64,000 nt of DNA from Escherichia phage vB_Ec-M-J (OQ718158.1); one strand, 5' to 3'. Positions 6,439 to 33,073 are shown, counted from the stretch's first letter. Program-made: numbers and translations. Notes: generated by a model from the letters alone, not told the origin.

Positions 6439-6909
6439 ATGAGTTTTTCAAGAGCATTAGAAATTGCTAAGTTAATTGATTTATGTAAAAAGGAAATAGT
6501 ACTCAATCGTCTCAATGGGTATCTATTCAAGGAAGGTAAAGCTTATTGTCGAATGATATACGATGACAGTAGTGAGTACATTCACATGTACGAAGAAAAC
6601 TTAGATTCTTCTGAAACAACACTCACTGGGTGTGATGTTAATCTGGAAGATAATTACATGTACTTCTGTCGTGATGCTGATATTTTAATACAATATACTG
6701 ACATTATAACTGGTGCAGCAGAAAAACATCTTCCGTATTCAGTACTGGATAATGACTGGGGAAGTGAAGAGTTCTACTTCCAGCAGAATACTATCTACGA
6801 GGAATATGTGCTTGACAAGCTTGTCATTCTGTGGTACTTTAATAATACCGATTGTCCTAGCTTCTATCTGGACTTGGATCTACTACGAGTTATTAAAGAG
6901 GATATATGA
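6439..6909 (+). CDS. hypothetical protein, family A (MSxxSAL subfamily)
   Basis: AGGAG RBS; N-terminus MSFSRALEIAK; motif SEEFYFQQNTIY ... LVILWYF. Confidence 0.7.
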   Translation: MSFSRALEIAKLIDLCKKEIVLNRLNGYLFKEGKAYCRMIYDDSSEYIHMYEENLDSSETTLTGCDVNLEDNYMYFCRDADILIQYTDIITGAAEKHLPYSVLDNDWGSEEFYFQQNTIYEEYVLDKLVILWYFNNTDCPSFYLDLDLLRVIKEDI

Positions 6910-7346
6910 GTTTAGCAAGTGCACTTAAACTGGCACACAAAATACATCACTTCCACGATAACATAAAAAGTGGTTTCTATGGTGATAAAGTAAGTGCATT
7001 TGGTAATGAGTATTATCTATCAGGTATAAAGACATACTCTGATGATATTTTACTTATGGGCCATGATAAAGACAATACTATACAGTACTCTTCATGTAGT
7101 CAATATACTAGTTTTTTTGTATATATTCCAGGTACTAAGATTACTTTTGACACATCAAATACACCTGTTGACTTCGGGATACTTGATGGGCCGTGGGGTA
7201 CTGAAGAGTATTACTTCCAACAGAGTCTTATTTTTAACCAAGAAATGCTTGATTCCTTGGTTGTTTTGTGGTACTTTAAGGAATTGAATTTTGAACCCTT
7301 CTTCCTTGACTGGGGAGCATGTGAATATTTAAGTACAGGGGATTAG
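6906..7346 (+). CDS. hypothetical protein, family A (MSxxSAL subfamily)
   Basis: N-terminus MSLASALKLAHK; motif GPWGTEEYYFQQSLIF ... LVVLWYFK. Confidence 0.7.
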   Translation: MSLASALKLAHKIHHFHDNIKSGFYGDKVSAFGNEYYLSGIKTYSDDILLMGHDKDNTIQYSSCSQYTSFFVYIPGTKITFDTSNTPVDFGILDGPWGTEEYYFQQSLIFNQEMLDSLVVLWYFKELNFEPFFLDWGACEYLSTGD

Positions 7347-7348
7347 TA

Positions 7349-7837
7349 ATGTCATTACAAAGTGCATTGAAAGAAGCAAAGAAGATTCATGAGTACATGA
7401 TTATGGTACAAGAAGGTTCAGTGCCTGGTGTGTATAAAACATCTGATACTGAATTTTTTGTAAAAGACCGCGACGATTATGATGAGTCAGAGATACATGC
7501 AGAAACGTTAGTACTACACACTGATACGGGTGATACTGATGACTGTGAATATCATATGTACAATCAATACATTAGTTATTGTAGAGATGAAGATATTATA
7601 ATTTACAGCCCTGATTACGATGATTATGACACAATCATTCCGTATTCAGTACTGGAAGGTCCGTGGGACAGTGAGGAATATTACTTCCAGAACAGTACTG
7701 TGTACAATGAAGAAGAATTAGATGTTATTGTAATTATGTGGTACTTTAAAAGTATTGGTTCTGGTAGTTTCTATTTCGATTATGAATACGTAGAGAATAC
7801 TGTAGGGGAAGATAATGTCATTACGAAGTGCTCTTGA
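7349..7837 (+). CDS. hypothetical protein, family A (MSxxSAL subfamily)
   Basis: N-terminus MSLQSALKEAKK; motif GPWDSEEYYFQNSTVY ... IMWYFKSI. Confidence 0.7.
   Translation: MSLQSALKEAKKIHEYMIMVQEGSVPGVYKTSDTEFFVKDRDDYDESEIHAETLVLHTDTGDTDDCEYHMYNQYISYCRDEDIIIYSPDYDDYDTIIPYSVLEGPWDSEEYYFQNSTVYNEEELDVIVIMWYFKSIGSGSFYFDYEYVENTVGEDNVITKCS
7631..7775 (+). repeat. nucleotide-level paralogous repeat, copy 1 of 2
   Basis: ~80% identical by eye to 8094-8233 (ggtccgtgggaYagtgaRgaRtattacttYcagaaYagtact...). Confidence 0.6.
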
Positions 7838-8258
7838 TAAAGCAAAAGAACTACAGGCATATATTGAAGATATTAAGGCTGGGAAGTTCGAAGAAGTATA
7901 CAAAGCCGAGAATGGTAACTACTACAAGGATTGTGATTTTGCTACAACTACAGTTATTCTTGGGTTGAATTCCAAAAGTCCCGCAGATTTTTCACAATAC
8001 AATCCAGATGCAGAATTTATCAGTTATGCTTATGGTGGTGAAATCCGTTTTTATAATCGCAGCAGACCTTTAAAATTGAACTTTGAAGTACTGAAAGGTC
8101 CGTGGGATAGTGAAGAGTATTACTTTCAGAATAGTACTTTGTATGATGATGAAGTACTAGATACTTTAGTTATTATGTGGTACTTTAAAAGTATTGATAG
8201 CACAAGATTTTATTTGGATTATGAATATGTACGTGCAGCACATAAGGGTAAACGATGA
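7815..8258 (+). CDS. hypothetical protein, family A (MSxxSAL subfamily)
   Basis: N-terminus MSLRSALDKAKE; motif GPWDSEEYYFQNSTLY ... IMWYFKSI. Confidence 0.7.
   Translation: MSLRSALDKAKELQAYIEDIKAGKFEEVYKAENGNYYKDCDFATTTVILGLNSKSPADFSQYNPDAEFISYAYGGEIRFYNRSRPLKLNFEVLKGPWDSEEYYFQNSTLYDDEVLDTLVIMWYFKSIDSTRFYLDYEYVRAAHKGKR
8094..8233 (+). repeat. nucleotide-level paralogous repeat, copy 2 of 2
   Basis: matches 7631-7775. Confidence 0.6.
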
Positions 8259-8569
8259 AATTCTTATACAGTATTCAGTACATTCCAGGTACAATTAGTT
8301 TAATGTATTTCTTCGATCATGATAATTTCCAGCACCTTGCCGTTAGAAGATGTAATGAATCTTTAATGATTGAATATCTTCACGATTGTGATTATATTCC
8401 CGACTTTCTTGAATGTGATTACAGAGATGATCATGAAACATTTCTTTTTCAGGAATCACTTATATGGGATAAGAGAATTAATTTTCATGCCTTAATTGAG
8501 ATACAAAAACAAGTGAAGTACTACTGGGATTACTTAATTACCCAAGAATATATAGAGATTGAAATATAA
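8255..8569 (+). CDS. hypothetical protein, family A (ELFQESL subfamily)
   Basis: 104-aa ORF; motif ETFLFQESLIWDK. Confidence 0.65.
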   Translation: MKFLYSIQYIPGTISLMYFFDHDNFQHLAVRRCNESLMIEYLHDCDYIPDFLECDYRDDHETFLFQESLIWDKRINFHALIEIQKQVKYYWDYLITQEYIEIEI

Positions 8570-9012
8570 TGTACGAAAGTGATCTTAAGCACGCTGAAGA
8601 ATTAGTTAATATAGTAAAGTTCTTTCAAAATAATATAAAGTACTTAGACTATAAAGGGGCATATATTAGTACTATAAGTGTTGGTACTGATATTCTAGGA
8701 TTAGGTAATGAATATAAGTACGAGTCACATGATTATGATTTGGAATTCAAGTACTTCGTATGGGATTCTGGAACTTTCTATTATATAGAGGAAGGTGGAA
8801 AATATTTTGAATTCACAGAAGAAGAAGTACTATTTTTAAATTCAGAAGATGCTTACTTCCAGTACAGTACTATATACCCAAATGGGGCGTTAAGAGCTTT
8901 AGTAGTTTTTAATGCATTCCTGAAAGAGAACTTTAATAATTCTATATTCATTGATTTAGATTATGTATATGAACTAAATCAGGTGATATATATGGAGTCC
9001 AGAGAAAAATGA
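8569..9012 (+). CDS. hypothetical protein, family A
   Basis: 147-aa ORF; motif EDAYFQYSTIY. Confidence 0.65.
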   Translation: MYESDLKHAEELVNIVKFFQNNIKYLDYKGAYISTISVGTDILGLGNEYKYESHDYDLEFKYFVWDSGTFYYIEEGGKYFEFTEEEVLFLNSEDAYFQYSTIYPNGALRALVVFNAFLKENFNNSIFIDLDYVYELNQVIYMESREK

Positions 9013-9455
9013 GTTATGAAAGTGCACTAAAAAAGGCTAATGATATTCTACGCGTTGTTCAGTTCTTAAAGGACTATCCTGATTATGTAGATGATGAACG
9101 AAGAGAAGTTTCTAATGGCACGAAGATTACAATTGATTCTTTATTTGACACTAGCAACGACAACTGTAGTACTATTGAATTAGCATACGATTATATTTCA
9201 TTGAACAGAAAATATGATGAAGTTACGATAGAGCGTCATGAGAATGAAGAATCTTTTAAAATTTCTGATATTTTATCTCTGAGTACAGAAGAAGGGTACT
9301 TCCAGGGAAGTACTGTTTATAATGAAGGAACACTTGACAATCTATGTACATTTAGTGTACTATATCAGAAGTCAGTACTGGATATATTTTATCTAGACAC
9401 TGAAAAACTTGATAGGTTAGTTGATTTCGTTACTATAGAAGAGGCATCCTTTTGA
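9009..9455 (+). CDS. hypothetical protein, family A
   Basis: N-terminus MSYESALKKAND; motif EEGYFQGSTVY. Confidence 0.65.
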   Translation: MSYESALKKANDILRVVQFLKDYPDYVDDERREVSNGTKITIDSLFDTSNDNCSTIELAYDYISLNRKYDEVTIERHENEESFKISDILSLSTEEGYFQGSTVYNEGTLDNLCTFSVLYQKSVLDIFYLDTEKLDRLVDFVTIEEASF

Positions 9456-12187: not shown

Positions 12188-12721
12188 ATGTTAGATAAAA
12201 TAAAGAACGAGGGAACTCTATACAATCATCTTAAGTTGGATACGTTCGAGGCAGCAATCAGTACTGCACAAGATATAATTGATATTATCAAGTACATTAA
12301 AGAAAATAAGTTAAAATGTGTGAAAACGCCAGAACGTACAATGTACAAAGATGACGACCTTCACGTATCAGTTGTTAAGCCAAAAGATAAGGATGGTAAT
12401 AGAGATTTCTATAATAACAGTGCACAGTATGAATGTGAATATGATCCCGAATTTAGAGGTGGATTCATGTGCTTCAGTAAAACAGATACTTCACATGTTG
12501 AGATACGTACATTAAAAGGTCTAGGTAGATTTGAGTTCATGGATATAGAACTAAATGAAGAAAACTACTTCCAACAATCATTACTTAATACTGAATACAA
12601 TTTAGGTGTACTATTCATGTACAAGTACTTATATGAGCACTTAAATGAAGACTTCTATCTGGACTTAGAAGATTACCATTTAGTATGGAAAGAAATGGTA
12701 GAACTTCGTGAGAACTCTTGA
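12188..12721 (+). CDS. hypothetical protein, family A
   Basis: ATG 12188 with GAGG RBS 12179-12182; motif EENYFQQSLL. Confidence 0.65.
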   Translation: MLDKIKNEGTLYNHLKLDTFEAAISTAQDIIDIIKYIKENKLKCVKTPERTMYKDDDLHVSVVKPKDKDGNRDFYNNSAQYECEYDPEFRGGFMCFSKTDTSHVEIRTLKGLGRFEFMDIELNEENYFQQSLLNTEYNLGVLFMYKYLYEHLNEDFYLDLEDYHLVWKEMVELRENS

Positions 12722-12747
12722 CACCCTCCAAATCTTTGTGATATAAT
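12718..12747 (+). promoter_or_regulatory. sigma70-like promoter (TTGACA-N18-TGATATAAT)
   Basis: -35 TTGACA 12718-12723, extended -10 TGATATAAT ending 12747, 34 nt upstream of the gene at 12781. Confidence 0.6.
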
Positions 12748-27415: not shown

Positions 27416-27441
27416 GACATACCATAAGTTTATGATATAAT
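27414..27441 (+). promoter_or_regulatory. sigma70-like promoter (GAGACA-N16-TGATATAAT)
   Basis: -35 GAGACA 27414-27419, -10 TATAAT 27436-27441 preceded by TGA; faces the ORF-free island. Confidence 0.45.
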
Positions 27442-27444
27442 GTA

Positions 27445-27478
27445 AGGTGACAGCAGAATATGTTGTCACCTTTTTTTA
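27445..27478 (+). terminator. rho-independent terminator-like hairpin
   Basis: AGGTGACAG...TTGTCACCT followed by TTTTTTTT. Confidence 0.6.
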
Positions 27479-28096
27479 ATCCTGAAAGGTTCCATATGGA
27501 AATGATTGAAGCCTAATCCACTCGAAAAGTAGAGGGTAGATGAGTAGTCCTTTCAGTACGAACAGCAAATGAAACCCGTTAGATGATGGCATAGTTTGAA
27601 CCACTCACGGCAATGCGGCTGTATAAAGAACTCCAATAGGATAAAGAGAGTTCCTCGATAGACATATAAGGATCGCACCTTACCAATTATCTAAGGGAGA
27701 TTTCATGAGAAATTTGCGGTCGTAATTTATACAAAATAGTTGCGTCCAAAATTCGTGAAATCAAATACAAGTACTGGTCATATGGTATTTGTATTATGTG
27801 TCGGGATGTTTAAGACCGACGACCGTTGCTACAAGAACCGCGATAGAGAGAAACAGAGCAACCCGCTTTCGCCTCGTAAGAGAATTCGTGATATGAACTA
27901 TGTGAAGGCCACCAGCGTCAAACTTTTTTTGTTCTTTCCCCTGCGGGGGGATGAAATATGCTCAAGCAAACCCCGTCAATATTAATTAAAACAAATCATA
28001 GTACTTTCGTTGAATTAGACATGCGAAGCGTGTATAATTCGACTGGTGTTGATGAAGTCAACGCCATGTACAGTCATTGATGTTTCCATAGGAATA
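27479..28096 (+). ncRNA. candidate structured non-coding RNA or regulatory island (identity unknown)
   Basis: ~600 bp with no credible ORF in a dense genome, visibly higher GC, palindrome TTCCATATGGAA, long-range complement CCTGAAAGG / CCTTTCAG, GC hairpin CCCCTGCGGGG. Confidence 0.25.
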
Positions 28097-28642
28097 ATGA
28101 TGTCATTTATTAAAAAATCTAAAAGCGTCACTTATAAAACACTAGAATTTGTTGATTCAGACAATCAGAACCAAGACCAGGAGAATTTTACTGGTTTTGT
28201 TGTGATTAAAGAAAAGGGATGTATTTCGTACATCAAAGAGTTGCAGTGCGGTTTTGAATTAACTTCCATTAAGTTATTCCCAACCAAGAAGCCTACAATT
28301 CTTAAAGCTCGTTATGGGAACTACTACGAAGAGCGTTATAGTAATAATCTAATCAGTGCGAAAGCACATATCGTCAATGGTGAACTAGAAGGAGAATATA
28401 GAAAATTCAACCCACAAGGAAAATGTGTTTGGGTTAAATACTTCAATTCAGGAAATGATGTAACATCAGAAATTATTGAGTTTTTAGGTTTAACATGTAC
28501 CCTTGAAACTCTTCATGATTACAAATTTAATACTGAAGAAGAGTTTAATCTGATGATGCGTTATGGATCACATTTTAAATTTTTATATGAATACAACATT
28601 GACAGTAGTACTTTTGATGACATAGTACTTAACTGTCTATAA
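28097..28642 (+). CDS. hypothetical protein
   Basis: ATG 28097 after AGGA; repeated G-x-Y/F motifs; C-terminal EEEFNLMM resembling family A. Confidence 0.55.
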   Translation: MMSFIKKSKSVTYKTLEFVDSDNQNQDQENFTGFVVIKEKGCISYIKELQCGFELTSIKLFPTKKPTILKARYGNYYEERYSNNLISAKAHIVNGELEGEYRKFNPQGKCVWVKYFNSGNDVTSEIIEFLGLTCTLETLHDYKFNTEEEFNLMMRYGSHFKFLYEYNIDSSTFDDIVLNCL

Positions 28643-28658
28643 TCAAAGGAAATTATGT

Positions 28659-29183
28659 ATGTCGAAGAAGGATGCTTCGAAGAAAAAACAATCAGTACAT
28701 TTCAGTACTGGAAAAGATAACTGGACTACTCCAAAGGATTTCTTTGAAGATTTGGATGAACTCTGGGAATTTACACTAGATGCAGCGTGTGTCAAAGAAA
28801 CTGCATTGTGTGATAAGTTCTTTACACCAGAAGACAATTCACTTGAACAGGACTGGGGAAACAATATCGTGTGGCTCAACCCACCGTACAGTGATTTGAA
28901 AACGTGGTTATCTAAGGCAGTTGATGCATATAATAACGGGGCAACTGTAGTTATTCTTGTACCCTCAAGAACCGATACAATTGCTTTTCAGGATTATGCT
29001 GCTAAAATATGTGATTGTATTTGTTTTATAAAAGGTCGCTTAAAGTTCGGCATTCCTGAAGAACCAGATAAAAAGACGGACAGTGCACCATTCCCTAGTT
29101 GTTTAATAGTACTTGATAAGTATTTGACTCCAGCTAAAATCAACTATCTTAAATCTCTTGGTCAGGTGATGAAGAACATATGA
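28659..29183 (+). CDS. dam: phage-type DNA N6-adenine methyltransferase (Dam family)
   Basis: NPPY catalytic motif (WLNPPYSD), 174 aa, layout typical of the small phage Dam family. Confidence 0.8.
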   Translation: MSKKDASKKKQSVHFSTGKDNWTTPKDFFEDLDELWEFTLDAACVKETALCDKFFTPEDNSLEQDWGNNIVWLNPPYSDLKTWLSKAVDAYNNGATVVILVPSRTDTIAFQDYAAKICDCICFIKGRLKFGIPEEPDKKTDSAPFPSCLIVLDKYLTPAKINYLKSLGQVMKNI

Positions 29184-29713
29184 AAGAAACATGTATATTA
29201 TCATTTATGCGATGTAACCCAATACATCACGGACATGGTTTAGTGTTTGAAAAAGCTCAAGCACTACAAGAACAGTACAATGCGGATTTGAAAATATTCC
29301 TTAGTACCAGTACTGATGCCGTCAAAAACCCATTACCTCCTGAACTGAAAATGTACTATACAGAAGGATTTTACCCATCTGTACAAGAAAATATCTATAC
29401 AGAAGATAATCTGTTTGATATAATGAGAGAACTGGATGGAAAGTACTTAGATGTTCTTTTCATATGTGGTTCAGATAGACTTGAACCATTCCAAAAAACA
29501 CTTGACACGTACAATGGGAAGTTATATAATTTTTGTTCAATCAAGGCAGTTCAAGCTGGAATTGACCGAAATGTAAGTCGCTACAGTTCCACACAGATGC
29601 GTGAGTTTGCCAAGAATGAAGATTTTAATAGCTTCAGTACTTTTCTACCTGGTAATGATGATGCACTGAAAATTAAACTATTTGAAGATGTAATAAAATA
29701 CATGAGGAAATAA
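29180..29713 (+). CDS. HxGH nucleotidyltransferase, NMN/NaMN adenylyltransferase-like
   Basis: N-terminal NPIHHGHG (H-x-G-H) and C-terminal SSTQMR (ISSTxxR-like) motifs. Confidence 0.6.
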   Translation: MKETCILSFMRCNPIHHGHGLVFEKAQALQEQYNADLKIFLSTSTDAVKNPLPPELKMYYTEGFYPSVQENIYTEDNLFDIMRELDGKYLDVLFICGSDRLEPFQKTLDTYNGKLYNFCSIKAVQAGIDRNVSRYSSTQMREFAKNEDFNSFSTFLPGNDDALKIKLFEDVIKYMRK

Positions 29714-29715
29714 CT

Positions 29716-30009
29716 ATGTCAGTACTGTTTAAAACTAACCCAGTACTTTGGGATCAGAATGAGGATTCGGGTTTCCGTTCAATCCATGTTGAATTCAAAG
29801 GTAATACGGTGGTTGCAATCATTGCAAACAAAACTTTAGGAAACTGGACTGCACAAGTTGTTCCTATGGGATATTCTTATACATCTGATGAAGTTGCGTT
29901 TCTGGCTGAATTATATAGTCAAACACCATTCATCATCAATGTTCTAGAGCGTAGTGATAAGTTAACACATGACGAAGTAATTGACTTCCTGGCGAACTTA
30001 CATGTCTGA
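29716..30009 (+). CDS. hypothetical protein
   Basis: 97-aa ORF; GAGGAA RBS. Confidence 0.5.
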   Translation: MSVLFKTNPVLWDQNEDSGFRSIHVEFKGNTVVAIIANKTLGNWTAQVVPMGYSYTSDEVAFLAELYSQTPFIINVLERSDKLTHDEVIDFLANLHV

Positions 30010-30289
30010 TGATTCGAATCTAACAGGTTATTTTTTGCAAGAATCAATGATCAAATTCAGTGAACATTTTCCAGTACTAGATGGTGTGGAGATGTGGCAT
30101 GTAAAACCACTCTTCCACACTTTCAGTAAAGAGCACAAAATGTTATTGACTGAGGCTTGTAAATCGAATAAAATATGCCAAATCAAGATTGGTGTAAATG
30201 TCTACAAAGGATTAGTCATCTTTTTTGACAACAACAGCAACTACTTTTATATTGTTAAGGAGCATTACGTTGACAAATACAAATACTAA
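30002..30289 (+). CDS. hypothetical protein
   Basis: ATG 30002 overlapping upstream TGA (ORF track offers 29981). Confidence 0.45.
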   Translation: MSDDSNLTGYFLQESMIKFSEHFPVLDGVEMWHVKPLFHTFSKEHKMLLTEACKSNKICQIKIGVNVYKGLVIFFDNNSNYFYIVKEHYVDKYKY

Positions 30290-30887
30290 TACATACTTTC
30301 GTTATCTTCGCCTAGGGCTTTCCCTACGCCCAATCCGTGGTAAGTGTGATTCACTTGCTGATTTGGATTATGCATATGCATTACATTGTGATGGTGTTCA
30401 ATATGTATTAGGTGACTATGGCACATTCGAAGAATCCAATGACAGTTCAGAAATTATTGCTGGTGTTGCTAACCTTAACAACATTGCCAATAGTTCTCGT
30501 CATGAAATCGTTCTTGAAATTCAGAACTTCATTGAGAAAAATACTGGCAAGCGTACATGGTCATATGTCGGTACTGATGCACAAATGTCAATCGCATTTG
30601 GTAACGAAGATGGTTATGTAGCACAACTTATTATGGATTTCGAATCAGAAGAGAAGTTCCTAGAATACAAGGAAAAAATCATCCAATCCTTGTTGCAAAT
30701 GGGTATTCCTGAAGATCGTATGCCTGAAATTCAAAGCATTGATGAGTTTGTTCTTATCCCATCTGATGAAAAATATGATGCGATGTTTACAGCACTGAAC
30801 ATTCCTGGTGTAGTTGTTGAGTACTTCGATGATGGTGATGCTGACATTTACCTAGATCTCGACGACGATGATGACGATGATGAATAA
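30270..30887 (+). CDS. hypothetical acidic protein with poly-Asp C-terminus
   Basis: TTG 30270 eight nt after AAGGAG (alternative ATG 30225); ends DLDDDDDDDE. Confidence 0.45.
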   Translation: MTNTNTNTYFRYLRLGLSLRPIRGKCDSLADLDYAYALHCDGVQYVLGDYGTFEESNDSSEIIAGVANLNNIANSSRHEIVLEIQNFIEKNTGKRTWSYVGTDAQMSIAFGNEDGYVAQLIMDFESEEKFLEYKEKIIQSLLQMGIPEDRMPEIQSIDEFVLIPSDEKYDAMFTALNIPGVVVEYFDDGDADIYLDLDDDDDDDE

Positions 30888-30893
30888 TACATA

Positions 30894-30923
30894 TAGCCCG
30901 ACATAAGTTCGGGCTATTTTTTT
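30894..30923 (+). terminator. rho-independent terminator
   Basis: hairpin TAGCCCGA-cataagt-TCGGGCTA followed by TTTTTTT. Confidence 0.7.
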
Positions 30924-30933
30924 AAGGGGAAAT

Positions 30934-31203
30934 ATGAATTACAAACATATACAATTCACTTATATGGAATTATTTAAATTACACCATAATCACAGAAGTA
31001 CTAACACAATTAATAAAAATGCGTTTACTCATAAATTATGGTCAAATTACCTAGAAGAATTACGTGAGTATTTTATTGATACTGAAATTTTCATTAATGG
31101 AAAAAAACGAAAGATACTTAGAGTCGATAGTTTTGGTGGTAGATTAGTACTTTCATATAAATTTGATAACGACTTATTCTCTGTTGATTTGGTGAATATA
31201 TGA
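30934..31203 (+). CDS. hypothetical small protein, family B
   Basis: 89-aa ORF; first of a tandem run of ~90-aa paralogs. Confidence 0.55.
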   Translation: MNYKHIQFTYMELFKLHHNHRSTNTINKNAFTHKLWSNYLEELREYFIDTEIFINGKKRKILRVDSFGGRLVLSYKFDNDLFSVDLVNI

Positions 31204-31460
31204 ATTATAAAGATTTCCAATTAACATTCAAGTGCATTCGTGACCTAGCAAATAAAAATAATAGTATATTTTTAGAAGATACATGTATTGAAATGATTAA
31301 TATTGTGCGTGAGAGGATTAAAGAAAAATTCAGTACTGTAATTATCAACAACGATCATGCAGAATTTTCAGATATAATCATTAAGCTCGATGGTAAAGTA
31401 GAGGTACAGTTCTACACTGATTTTGGATTTACGAGTGTTCCTCTGGAGATATTCCCTTGA
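31200..31460 (+). CDS. hypothetical small protein, family B
   Basis: 86-aa tandem paralog (MNYKDFQLTF). Confidence 0.55.
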   Translation: MNYKDFQLTFKCIRDLANKNNSIFLEDTCIEMINIVRERIKEKFSTVIINNDHAEFSDIIIKLDGKVEVQFYTDFGFTSVPLEIFP

Positions 31461-31768
31461 AATTAAATTTGAATGATGTTCAATTCACGTATAAAAATAT
31501 ATATGGTTTGTATGACATGTATCTTTTTAGTGGGAAGATTGGTGAACATGTCGAATCAAAAGAATCACCATTTATTAATAATTACTATGATTACTTAGAT
31601 TCTATTGCTGAATATATAAAAAAGAATTACAGTACTTACACTGATGGAGATGACATATTTGAATATTCAGGTGTAAAATCTTATCAAGGTATTATCCATG
31701 TAGAATTTCTTGAAAAAACTGATAGGGAATTTATGGAGATTAAAGTTATGAAGTTAACGGACCTATAA
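31457..31768 (+). CDS. hypothetical small protein, family B
   Basis: TTG start overlapping upstream TGA; tandem paralog (LNDVQFTYKNIY). Confidence 0.45.
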   Translation: MKLNLNDVQFTYKNIYGLYDMYLFSGKIGEHVESKESPFINNYYDYLDSIAEYIKKNYSTYTDGDDIFEYSGVKSYQGIIHVEFLEKTDREFMEIKVMKLTDL

Positions 31769-31778
31769 GAGTTGACAT

Positions 31779-32090
31779 ATGAATATTAATGATATACAAT
31801 TCACATACAAATTTTTGTATATCCAATACGCTACGGTTGATGCTGGAGAATATCTCTACGGTGAAATCTATCGTTCGGTATGGATAAAGTTTTTGGATGA
31901 ATTACATGAATATTACCATGATTTGTGTATAGTTCGTGATAATAAAATATACAAATTCCGCGATATTGTTAGTCATAGCGGTAAGCTACGATTGGAATTA
32001 AGTACCGATAGTGATGTTGATTGGATTGGTGTAAATTTACTGGAGTTGGAGAATGAAAAACAACTTAAAGGAAATACAAGTATTTTATAA
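31779..32090 (+). CDS. hypothetical small protein, family B
   Basis: tandem paralog (MNINDIQFTYKFLY). Confidence 0.55.
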   Translation: MNINDIQFTYKFLYIQYATVDAGEYLYGEIYRSVWIKFLDELHEYYHDLCIVRDNKIYKFRDIVSHSGKLRLELSTDSDVDWIGVNLLELENEKQLKGNTSIL

Positions 32091-32337
32091 ATTCTTATAC
32101 TTGTCATATGTAAAAGATGAGTACTATGAAAGTGTGTATTATTTTTTATGGCAACATTACCGTACTATAGTAAGAGATTTATATATAGGAAAATCTATCA
32201 TATCCAATGGTGAAAAATGTATATGTACTGATGTTGTTAGTTTTAATGGTTCTTTAACACTGTGTTTCAGATGCGATAATAATAGTGGGTCATTTTCATT
32301 AAACGTATATCAGTTAGAAGGAATAAATTTTGAATAA
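32053..32337 (+). CDS. hypothetical small protein, family B
   Basis: tandem paralog (LKEIQVFYKFLY). Confidence 0.5.
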   Translation: MKNNLKEIQVFYKFLYLSYVKDEYYESVYYFLWQHYRTIVRDLYIGKSIISNGEKCICTDVVSFNGSLTLCFRCDNNSGSFSLNVYQLEGINFE

Positions 32338-32530
32338 ATGTCCATATTGCAACAGTACTCAATTAGCTCGTTTCCGTTTAGATTCAGACTGGGCCACTGG
32401 TGCTGGTGATTTCTTTCCCATCAATGATGATTCGGAATACACTGAAGAACAGCACAAAGATTTTGATAAATCATGGCGACCTGACATTGAGTGCATTTAT
32501 TGCCTTAATTGTGAGCGTATCCATGACTAA
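32330..32530 (+). CDS. small zinc-ribbon protein
   Basis: CPYC ... CIYCLNC cysteine pairs; TTG start after AAGGA. Confidence 0.45.
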   Translation: MNKCPYCNSTQLARFRLDSDWATGAGDFFPINDDSEYTEEQHKDFDKSWRPDIECIYCLNCERIHD

Positions 32531-32786
32531 AGCTGAACTGATCGTGCAAACACTGCGTTTATTGAGGGATTTAGATATCCCACGCATGGATGTGAAACTT
32601 GAAGATATCTACATTGAATCTCTTAGTGAAGATTACACCGATACCGTAATGATGCTGAATGACGTGCTTTATCGTATAGATAGCATCAGTCGTCTTGGAA
32701 GTACTTTAAAAGTGAATATGGAAAGAGTTGATAAACTTTACGTACATATATATAGTCTACCCATTTCAATATTAAACTATAGATGA
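32523..32786 (+). CDS. hypothetical protein
   Basis: ATG 32523 overlapping upstream stop. Confidence 0.45.
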   Translation: MTKAELIVQTLRLLRDLDIPRMDVKLEDIYIESLSEDYTDTVMMLNDVLYRIDSISRLGSTLKVNMERVDKLYVHIYSLPISILNYR

Positions 32787-33073
32787 ATATTATATTGATA
32801 CAAAAAACATATGCGTTATTGATGAAAGAATATACTAATACTTATGATGAAAAGTGCAGTGCAAATCATAATATGTATAAATTCATCACTCAAGAGTACA
32901 GGGATTATATATATGCTGCGTTAGTTGGTAGATATTTCAGTACTAAAAAACGTAAAGAACTCAAAGTTGTAGATATTACTTTTTTCTACAACGGGCATAT
33001 AACAATTCATGGTGTGGAACATAATTCACAAATATATCGTAACTACTCATCCAATGAGGTAACATTTTTATGA
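32783..33073 (+). CDS. hypothetical small protein, family B
   Basis: 96-aa ORF (MNIILIQKTYALL). Confidence 0.5.
   Translation: MNIILIQKTYALLMKEYTNTYDEKCSANHNMYKFITQEYRDYIYAALVGRYFSTKKRKELKVVDITFFYNGHITIHGVEHNSQIYRNYSSNEVTFL

Follow-up and report, generated by a model that had tools for sequence, protein, structure and literature searches.

A conserved acidic protein with a poly-aspartate tail and an apparently new fold in RaK2-like jumbo phages

Within the 64,000 nucleotides of Escherichia phage vB_Ec-M-J (OQ718158.1) analysed here (the window) lies a real, well delimited and conserved gene for a strongly acidic protein, which belongs to the conserved core of RaK2-like jumbo phages and has an apparently new fold. 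The protein combines a folded domain with a 19-residue tail, disordered in the structural model, that ends in a run of aspartates. A decoy role for this flexible polyanionic tail is plausible, and if any mimicry is involved, the disordered tail is a better candidate than the fold. The explanation we favour, which we offer tentatively and would not yet call probable, is a two-part binder in which the domain docks on a nucleic-acid-binding partner and the flexible acidic tail competes for that partner's basic groove.

The gene and its acidic product

The gene and the parts of its product are as follows.
30257..30262, plus strand: Shine-Dalgarno sequence AAGGAG, seen directly in the sequence
30270..30887, plus strand, stop codon included: coding sequence of the acidic protein, PHROG 15575 (ORF call, homologue matches and dN/dS)
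30270..30353, plus strand: residues 1–28, N-terminal element MTNTNTNTYFRYLRLGLSLRPIRGKC, net charge +4, the best conserved part (alignment and model)
30354..30827, plus strand: residues 29–186, alpha/beta core, net charge −20 (AlphaFold and BFVD models)
30828..30884, plus strand: residues 187–205, disordered polyanionic tail DDGDADIYLDLDDDDDDDE (pLDDT and composition)
30861..30881, plus strand: Asp7 run within the tail

The reading frame proposed in the initial annotation is present on the plus strand and encodes 205 residues. Its start codon is TTG, with 7 nt between AAGGAG and the TTG, and the N-terminus is supported by orthologues from other genera, which start exactly at the same conserved peptide; in RaK2 the orthologue starts with ATG (MNTNSNTYFRYLRLG). 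A TTG in the same frame at 30225, which would yield a 220-aa ORF, was rejected as the start since it has no ribosome-binding site and the orthologues begin at the conserved peptide. The dN/dS ratio is 0.064 against phAPEC6, which points to purifying selection on the gene, and 0.15 against RaK2. Segment 29000-32500 is 96–99% identical to eight Escherichia jumbo phages (Turkey3, EC.P1, TH47, Ecwhy_1, fEgEco12, WPEC3, CMSTMSU and WPEC5) and ~84% identical to 121Q, PBECO4 and phAPEC6, the last of the genus Asteriusvirus. The practical yield of the analysis is a corrected gene start and a domain map.

Two deposited orthologues differ from this gene model. The phAPEC6 protein gp390c (L002 2909-3385) is annotated from an internal ATG as a 158-aa product, without the conserved N-terminal 47 residues that are encoded from a TTG start. 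The CMSTMSU orthologue (MH494197.1, 70624-71134) aligns in three pieces, and the protein deposited for it (P0024, 'UNVERIFIED_ORG'), of pI 9.7, is a chimera produced by a frameshift; this broken copy is probably a sequencing error or a pseudogene.

The initial annotation described the product as highly acidic, Asp/Glu-rich throughout and ending in poly-aspartate. Overall acidity was confirmed by computation (43 D+E and 14 K+R residues, net charge −29, pI ~3.8), and the ending DLDDDDDDDE was borne out, the C-terminus reading ...DIYLDLDDDDDDDE. Enrichment throughout holds for the tail, which is 68% D/E and contains no K, R or H, and fails for the basic residues 1–28. The core at residues 29–186 is moderately acidic (18% D/E vs a window average of ~14%). 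The tail carries 13 of the 43 acidic residues and 13 of the 29 net negative charges; the folded part as a whole (residues 1–186) has 30 acidic and 14 basic residues, or −0.085 charge per residue, and 17 positions of conserved acidic character.

A seven-aspartate run is expected 1.5e-4 times in the proxy proteome of the window, where it is the sole acidic run of at least 5 residues. Its length varies among close relatives, from 7 in this phage to 6 in phAPEC6 and 5 in Turkey3, and the tails of orthologues vary both in length and in composition. Some homologues end in only 3–5 acidic residues, and the long tails always contain embedded aromatic or hydrophobic residues.

Genomic context and expression signals

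The gene closes, as its last cistron, a block conserved from Asteriusvirus to Mimasvirus, with the following features around it.
28010..28038, plus strand: candidate sigma-70-like promoter TTGAAT-17-TATAAT before the first gene of the Dam operon (consensus scan, 10/12)
28100..30289, plus strand: upstream cistrons of the conserved block (Pfam, PHROG and synteny), comprising the next five entries
first gene of the block, plus strand: 180-aa protein (phrog_16210, by PHROG)
28659-29183, plus strand: Dam methylase (Pfam E 1e-32)
29180-29713, plus strand: cytidylyltransferase-like nucleotidyltransferase (PHROG cytidyltransferase match, E 3.7e-52)
29716-30009, plus strand: 97-aa protein
30002-30289, plus strand: 95-aa protein, overlapping the acidic-protein gene by 20 nt
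30225..30253, plus strand: candidate sigma-70-like promoter TTGACA-17-TATATT inside the upstream cistron (11/12 matches)
30893..30924, plus strand: intrinsic terminator with a 9-bp stem (5 G-C pairs), a 7-nt loop and T7 (folding and shuffles)

Gene order in the block is the same in RaK2, CBB and GAP32; the 95-aa cistron occurs in this phage and RaK2 and is absent in CBB and GAP32. In the records of several relatives (121Q, Ecwhy_1 and fEgEco12) the adjacent nucleotidyltransferase is misannotated as 'ribonucleotide reductase A'.

The gene had been described as directly followed by a strong terminator and as preceding an array of related genes termed family B, and both descriptions hold. The GC-rich stem at 30893-30917, followed by T7, folds with −13.6 kcal/mol (z = −4.75), none of 200 shuffles folds as well, and the stem is identical in Turkey3 and phAPEC6. 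The terminator scan also returned a hairpin within the coding sequence at 30338-30360 (TGGTAAGTGTGATTCACTTGCTG plus a weak T-run), probably a chance match, given that just 3 of its pairs are G-C and that it falls where the conserved N-terminus is encoded. The family-B array consists of six divergent paralogues at 30934-33073. Its members are 86–103 aa long and 16–30% identical, have an N-terminal MNxxDIQFTYK motif in common, and match PHROGs without an assigned function.

Candidate promoters upstream of the gene resemble sigma-70 sites. The one at 28010-28038 is identical in Turkey3, and the one at 30225-30253 is kept in phAPEC6, with TTGACA-17-TACTAT and TTGACA-17-TAGCAT upstream of the orthologues in CBB and GAP32, respectively; promoter function of the 30225-30253 site is uncertain because the leader would be only ~10 nt. 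The excerpted table of RpoD-like promoters from the CBB authors lists none before CBB_75. Across the window, the pattern TTGACA-N16-18-TAnnnT occurs 21 times vs 7.2 expected, a count that none of 100 shuffles reaches, and 19 of the 21 sites lie on the plus (coding) strand. Examples are at 31-60, 1528-1556, 12718-12747, 29502-29530 and 31772-31800. This pattern suggests that the whole window is a region transcribed by the host RNA polymerase. The acidic-protein gene itself is probably transcribed by the host sigma-70 RNA polymerase in early or middle infection, as judged from promoter-like motifs only. A literature search found no functional, transcriptomic or anti-defence data on this gene.

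Upstream of the block, ~630 nt at 27416-28045 contain no convincing ORF and reach a GC content of 0.45 vs ~0.33 around them. This gap is flanked by a terminator-like hairpin (~27448-27475) on one side and the opening gene of the Dam operon on the other, and Turkey3, RaK2, CBB and GAP32 have gaps of similar size (~660–740 nt) at the corresponding position. Scanning the gap against Rfam by E-value gave no match; a conserved regulatory function or a non-coding RNA is possible.

The 62 proteins of the phAPEC6 virion proteome (PMC7247149 Table 1) do not include the orthologue gp390c, which indicates that the protein acts inside the cell. The same virions hold many 'DNA condensation' proteins and a single-stranded-DNA-binding protein, which raises the possibility of an escort resembling the histone chaperones: by analogy, the acidic protein might shield basic phage DNA-binding proteins, such as these condensation proteins or the phage single-stranded-DNA-binding protein, from premature DNA binding while itself remaining unpackaged. 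The acidic tail and acidic core resemble the acidic disordered regions of histone chaperones (PMC10987829), and a phage-encoded partner would explain the conserved core-gene status. However, the argument is purely analogical, and the gene is remote from the structural genes, in a region of early type; we regard an escort function as unlikely.

Predicted fold and family distribution

An AlphaFold2 model built from a 23-sequence alignment (mean pLDDT 82, pTM 0.75) shows a compact alpha/beta domain of seven helices and eight strands, followed by residues 188–205 at pLDDT <50, which are disordered. BFVD models of the RaK2 and CBB orthologues superpose on it with TM 0.93 and 0.76–0.85. The catalytic-core fold of class II aminoacyl-tRNA synthetases and BirA was among the candidate folds considered for the domain. 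Residues 1–28 are predicted to form a helix and a strand that pack onto the domain (pLDDT 82–90), and are not a free peptide. A signal peptide or virion-targeting N-terminus was considered and rejected, as the segment lacks hydrophobic character, is packed against the domain in the model, and belongs to a protein whose orthologue is absent from virions. G16, R20, P21, R23 and G24 are invariant among the 23 homologues; in the wider family G16 and G24 are nearly invariant, and P21 is common without being conserved. The near-invariant residues of the wide family are mostly glycine and aromatic, the polar ones being mainly H78 and Y45 only, and with so few invariant polar residues a binding scaffold fits better than an enzyme.

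Sequence-homology searches gave no link from the protein to any function. PDB sequence searches with the protein and with family profiles returned no match, the profile searches being empty at E ≤ 10; Pfam gave no family for the protein at E ≤ 1; and neither NCBIfam nor Pfam yielded a usable match to the protein or to two family profiles.

T7 Ocr (gp0.3) and ArdA are rigid double-stranded DNA mimics that block Type I restriction-modification. The initial annotation raised DNA mimicry as a possible function, and on this reading the folded protein would be a rigid mimic of the Ocr/ArdA type, made early against Type I restriction-modification, BREX or other DNA-binding host enzymes. The very low pI and the net charge are compatible with such a role, as are the 17 conserved acidic positions of the folded part, the sigma-70-like promoter candidates upstream and the operon shared with Dam methylase, another anti-restriction device; like Ocr and ArdA, this is a mobile-element gene beside other anti-restriction functions and is possibly expressed early. 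Absence of early expression had been named as counter-evidence in the initial annotation; the promoter-like motifs suggest, by contrast, early or middle expression. Since DNA mimics share, to our knowledge, no common fold, the absence of structural matches is not decisive. The structure prediction nevertheless speaks against an Ocr-like geometry. The model is globular alpha/beta, unlike the elongated helical dimer of Ocr with its surface carboxylates tracing bent B-DNA, and its helices carry mixed E/K pairs with no arrays of acidic residues. Much of the charge, in contrast to Ocr and ArdA, is in the disordered tail. No DNA mimic is found among the structural matches listed, which contain neither Ocr nor ArdA nor the three-domain elongated fold of ArdA, and Pfam gave no Ocr or ArdA match at E ≤ 1. 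The relatives of the fold are neutral, as detailed below, and the gene is a single-copy core gene over nine host genera that differ in their restriction-modification repertoires. Charge density in the folded part is about a third of that of Ocr, for which PMC3439906 gives 34 acidic and 6 basic residues per 116 aa, or −0.24 per residue. We find no support for rigid double-stranded DNA mimicry of the Ocr/ArdA kind and consider it improbable; for DNA mimicry or anti-restriction in general, no finding ties the protein to such a role and none refutes it.

The sole family match is PHROG 15575, to which no function is assigned (E 5.2e-86, residues 1–200 vs profile positions 1–193 of 193). The 23 homologues are 43–99% identical to the protein, and by tblastn 69 phage records, covering nine host genera, contain the gene; among the matches listed (40 of 69 records), all are 326–386 kb in length. 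The members for which taxonomy or synteny was examined (phAPEC6, RaK2, CBB and GAP32) are all RaK2-like jumbo phages. Named orthologues are RaK2 ORF451 (H6X4Q8), GAP32_071, CBB_75, phAPEC6 gp390c and 121Q gene 421, every one annotated as hypothetical only.

A profile search of 1.84 billion representative proteins recovered 48 relatives, none of them annotated. The distant ones are ~175–300 aa long and have the core motifs GVQY, RHH, WV..GGG.Q and FGN..GY in common with the phage members. They sit on the Pseudomonas megaplasmids pBASL58 and pMPPla107, on viral contigs of 141–425 kb and on one 1.9-Mb metagenomic contig; a related-loci search with a narrower alignment gave 5 loci. The neighbouring genes of the distant relatives include none in common with the phage block, and the megaplasmid and metagenome neighbourhoods consist mostly of genes without a Pfam match. 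The distant relatives are near neutral and have no acidic tail, which indicates that acidity is not a property of the fold. All full-length jumbo-phage-type members recovered have a net-negative core (−8 to −24) and net-negative last 20 residues (−3 to −14). Thus, the polyanionic character is derived and maintained in the phage clade.

The 1.9-Mb contig (JGI 3300034157 Ga0370506_000001, 1,917,244 bp) holds two paralogues of the family, together with tandem paralogue arrays and almost no genes with a Pfam match. It also encodes a protein with a PTH2 peptidyl-tRNA hydrolase domain and carries a gene with weak TnpB / Cas12f1-like Pfam matches. An aminoacyl-tRNA hydrolase gene lies near the homologue on megaplasmid pMPPla107.

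These distributions bear on our main alternative explanation, in which the function lies with the conserved globular domain, the acidic tail being incidental. The domain would then act as a binding module, scaffold or enzyme connected with the biology of very large replicons or with the neighbouring nucleotidyltransferase and Dam genes, and the tail would be a solubility-enhancing or drifting low-complexity appendage. First, the family reaches near-neutral, tail-less relatives on megaplasmids, the viral contigs and the 1.9-Mb contig, and the core motifs are kept in all of them. Second, the tail may be incidental low-complexity sequence because it is short (19 aa), its polymorphic D-run drifts between 5 and 7 residues, and several homologues have short tails, some with 3–5 acidic residues. 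On the other hand, every full-length jumbo-phage member keeps a net-negative tail, and the core became acidic in the same clade as the tail. Near-invariant polar residues limited to H78 and Y45 lend weak support to catalysis, and the phage and distant loci have no conserved neighbours in common. An incidental tail is a serious possibility, which we rate only slightly below the two-part binder.

A further signal comes from the PADLOC models. Nine of 34 family members match the Cas8c or Cas8b models locally, over ~55–95 residues and in a constant register (family residues ~23–108, typically 34–96, vs profile positions ~60–141), and no other PADLOC family is matched by more than one member. The best match scores 24 bits (E 4.1e-6) and that of this protein, which is weak, 16 bits (E 8.6e-4). 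The domain could accordingly be imagined as a free-standing protein related to the N-terminal part of Cas8c, the large subunit of type I-C Cascade, that interferes with, or derives from, CRISPR effector assembly. Against this, Pfam, which has a Cas8c/Csd1 model, gave no recurrent match among the matches listed (25 of 28 families), the family profiles matched no PDB sequence at E ≤ 10, and no Cas8c is among the structural matches listed. The whole-library profile search of 1.84 billion representatives gave no protein of >422 aa at E ≤ 0.001, and a second search, indexed by words and run at E ≤ 10, contributed neither a Cas8c nor any protein with a Pfam domain. No cas genes lie nearby, the neighbours being Dam, the nucleotidyltransferase and small ORFs, and the protein has 205 residues vs the ~525–540 profile positions of full-length Cas8c. 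Moreover, the CRISPR systems of the hosts are mostly of types I-E and I-F rather than I-C. A relationship of this kind is in our estimate very improbable.

A broader synthesis would treat the domain as a hitherto unrecognised family confined to giant replicons (the 326–386-kb jumbo phages, the 141–425-kb viral contigs, the ~1-Mb megaplasmids and the 1.9-Mb contig) and only remotely related to Cas8c, in its N-terminal region; in the RaK2-like clade the domain would have become a polyanionic decoy. The conversion would consist of acidification and the addition of a poly-Asp tail to the scaffold, with a conserved nucleic-acid-binding partner as the target. We judge this combination unlikely to be correct.

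The tail as a candidate decoy

In the two-part binder that we tentatively favour, the gene product would be a cytoplasmic, non-virion protein made from the last cistron of the Dam-methylase operon. Residues ~5–186 would form a compact alpha/beta domain presenting a specific, conserved docking surface made up of R20-P21-x-R23-G24, Q44-Y45, D49, E54, D58, R77-H78, W97, Q105 and D123. The last 19 residues, with their embedded aromatic and hydrophobic residues, would fill the basic nucleic-acid-binding groove of the bound partner, and the tail could thus act as a flexible competitor resembling single-stranded nucleic acid that blocks or regulates the partner. Possible partners are a host DNA- or RNA-binding protein, such as a restriction enzyme, a nucleoid protein or RNA polymerase, or a phage DNA-binding protein.

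Several observations are counted in favour of this decoy reading: purifying selection on the gene, its synteny with the Dam and nucleotidyltransferase genes, the non-virion orthologue, the sigma-70-like sites, the maintained polyanionic character, the confidently modelled domain with a disordered tail, and the aromatic or hydrophobic residues embedded in that tail. Counted against it is the status as a core gene over many host genera, which is atypical of fast-evolving anti-defence genes.

Acidic C-terminal tails serve as protein-docking and DNA-competing elements in E. coli SSB, T7 gp2.5 and T4 gp32. The tail described here is likewise short, disordered, acidic and C-terminal, with embedded aromatic or hydrophobic residues. 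It differs from these in ending with DDDDDDDE instead of a hydrophobic tip, in being attached to a core that is itself acidic, and in that no OB-fold was detected for the protein among the structural matches listed.

The nearest precedent is Gp44 of phage SPO1. In this protein a disordered acidic region follows the folded N-terminal domain; the region has been proposed from simulation to mimic single-stranded DNA by flexible rather than rigid mimicry, and its interaction with RNA polymerase subunits has been shown (PMC8208478). Both proteins join a folded domain to a disordered segment that is mostly D/E and has no basic residues. However, the tail here is 19 aa long and C-terminal whereas the Gp44 region is 67 aa long and central, and the two are not homologous, PDB sequence searches having returned no Gp44 chain.

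If the decoy reading is true, RaK2-like jumbo phages carry a conserved inhibitor or regulator that works via a flexible acidic tail, joining a very small set of such cases, and its target would be one common to many enterobacterial hosts or belong to the phage itself. At present, the protein is one more conserved hypothetical protein; modest leads are offered by the confinement of its family to very large mobile replicons and by the Cas8c-like signal.

Acidic proteins also occur elsewhere in the window. A second tandem array, at 6439-9455, contains at least 6 paralogous proteins of ~146–162 aa, most of which start with MSxxSALKxA and which have a GPWxSEEYYFQ motif in common. Per residue, several of them exceed the folded part of the protein described here in acidity, for example the 162-aa product of 7349-7837, with a net charge of −28.
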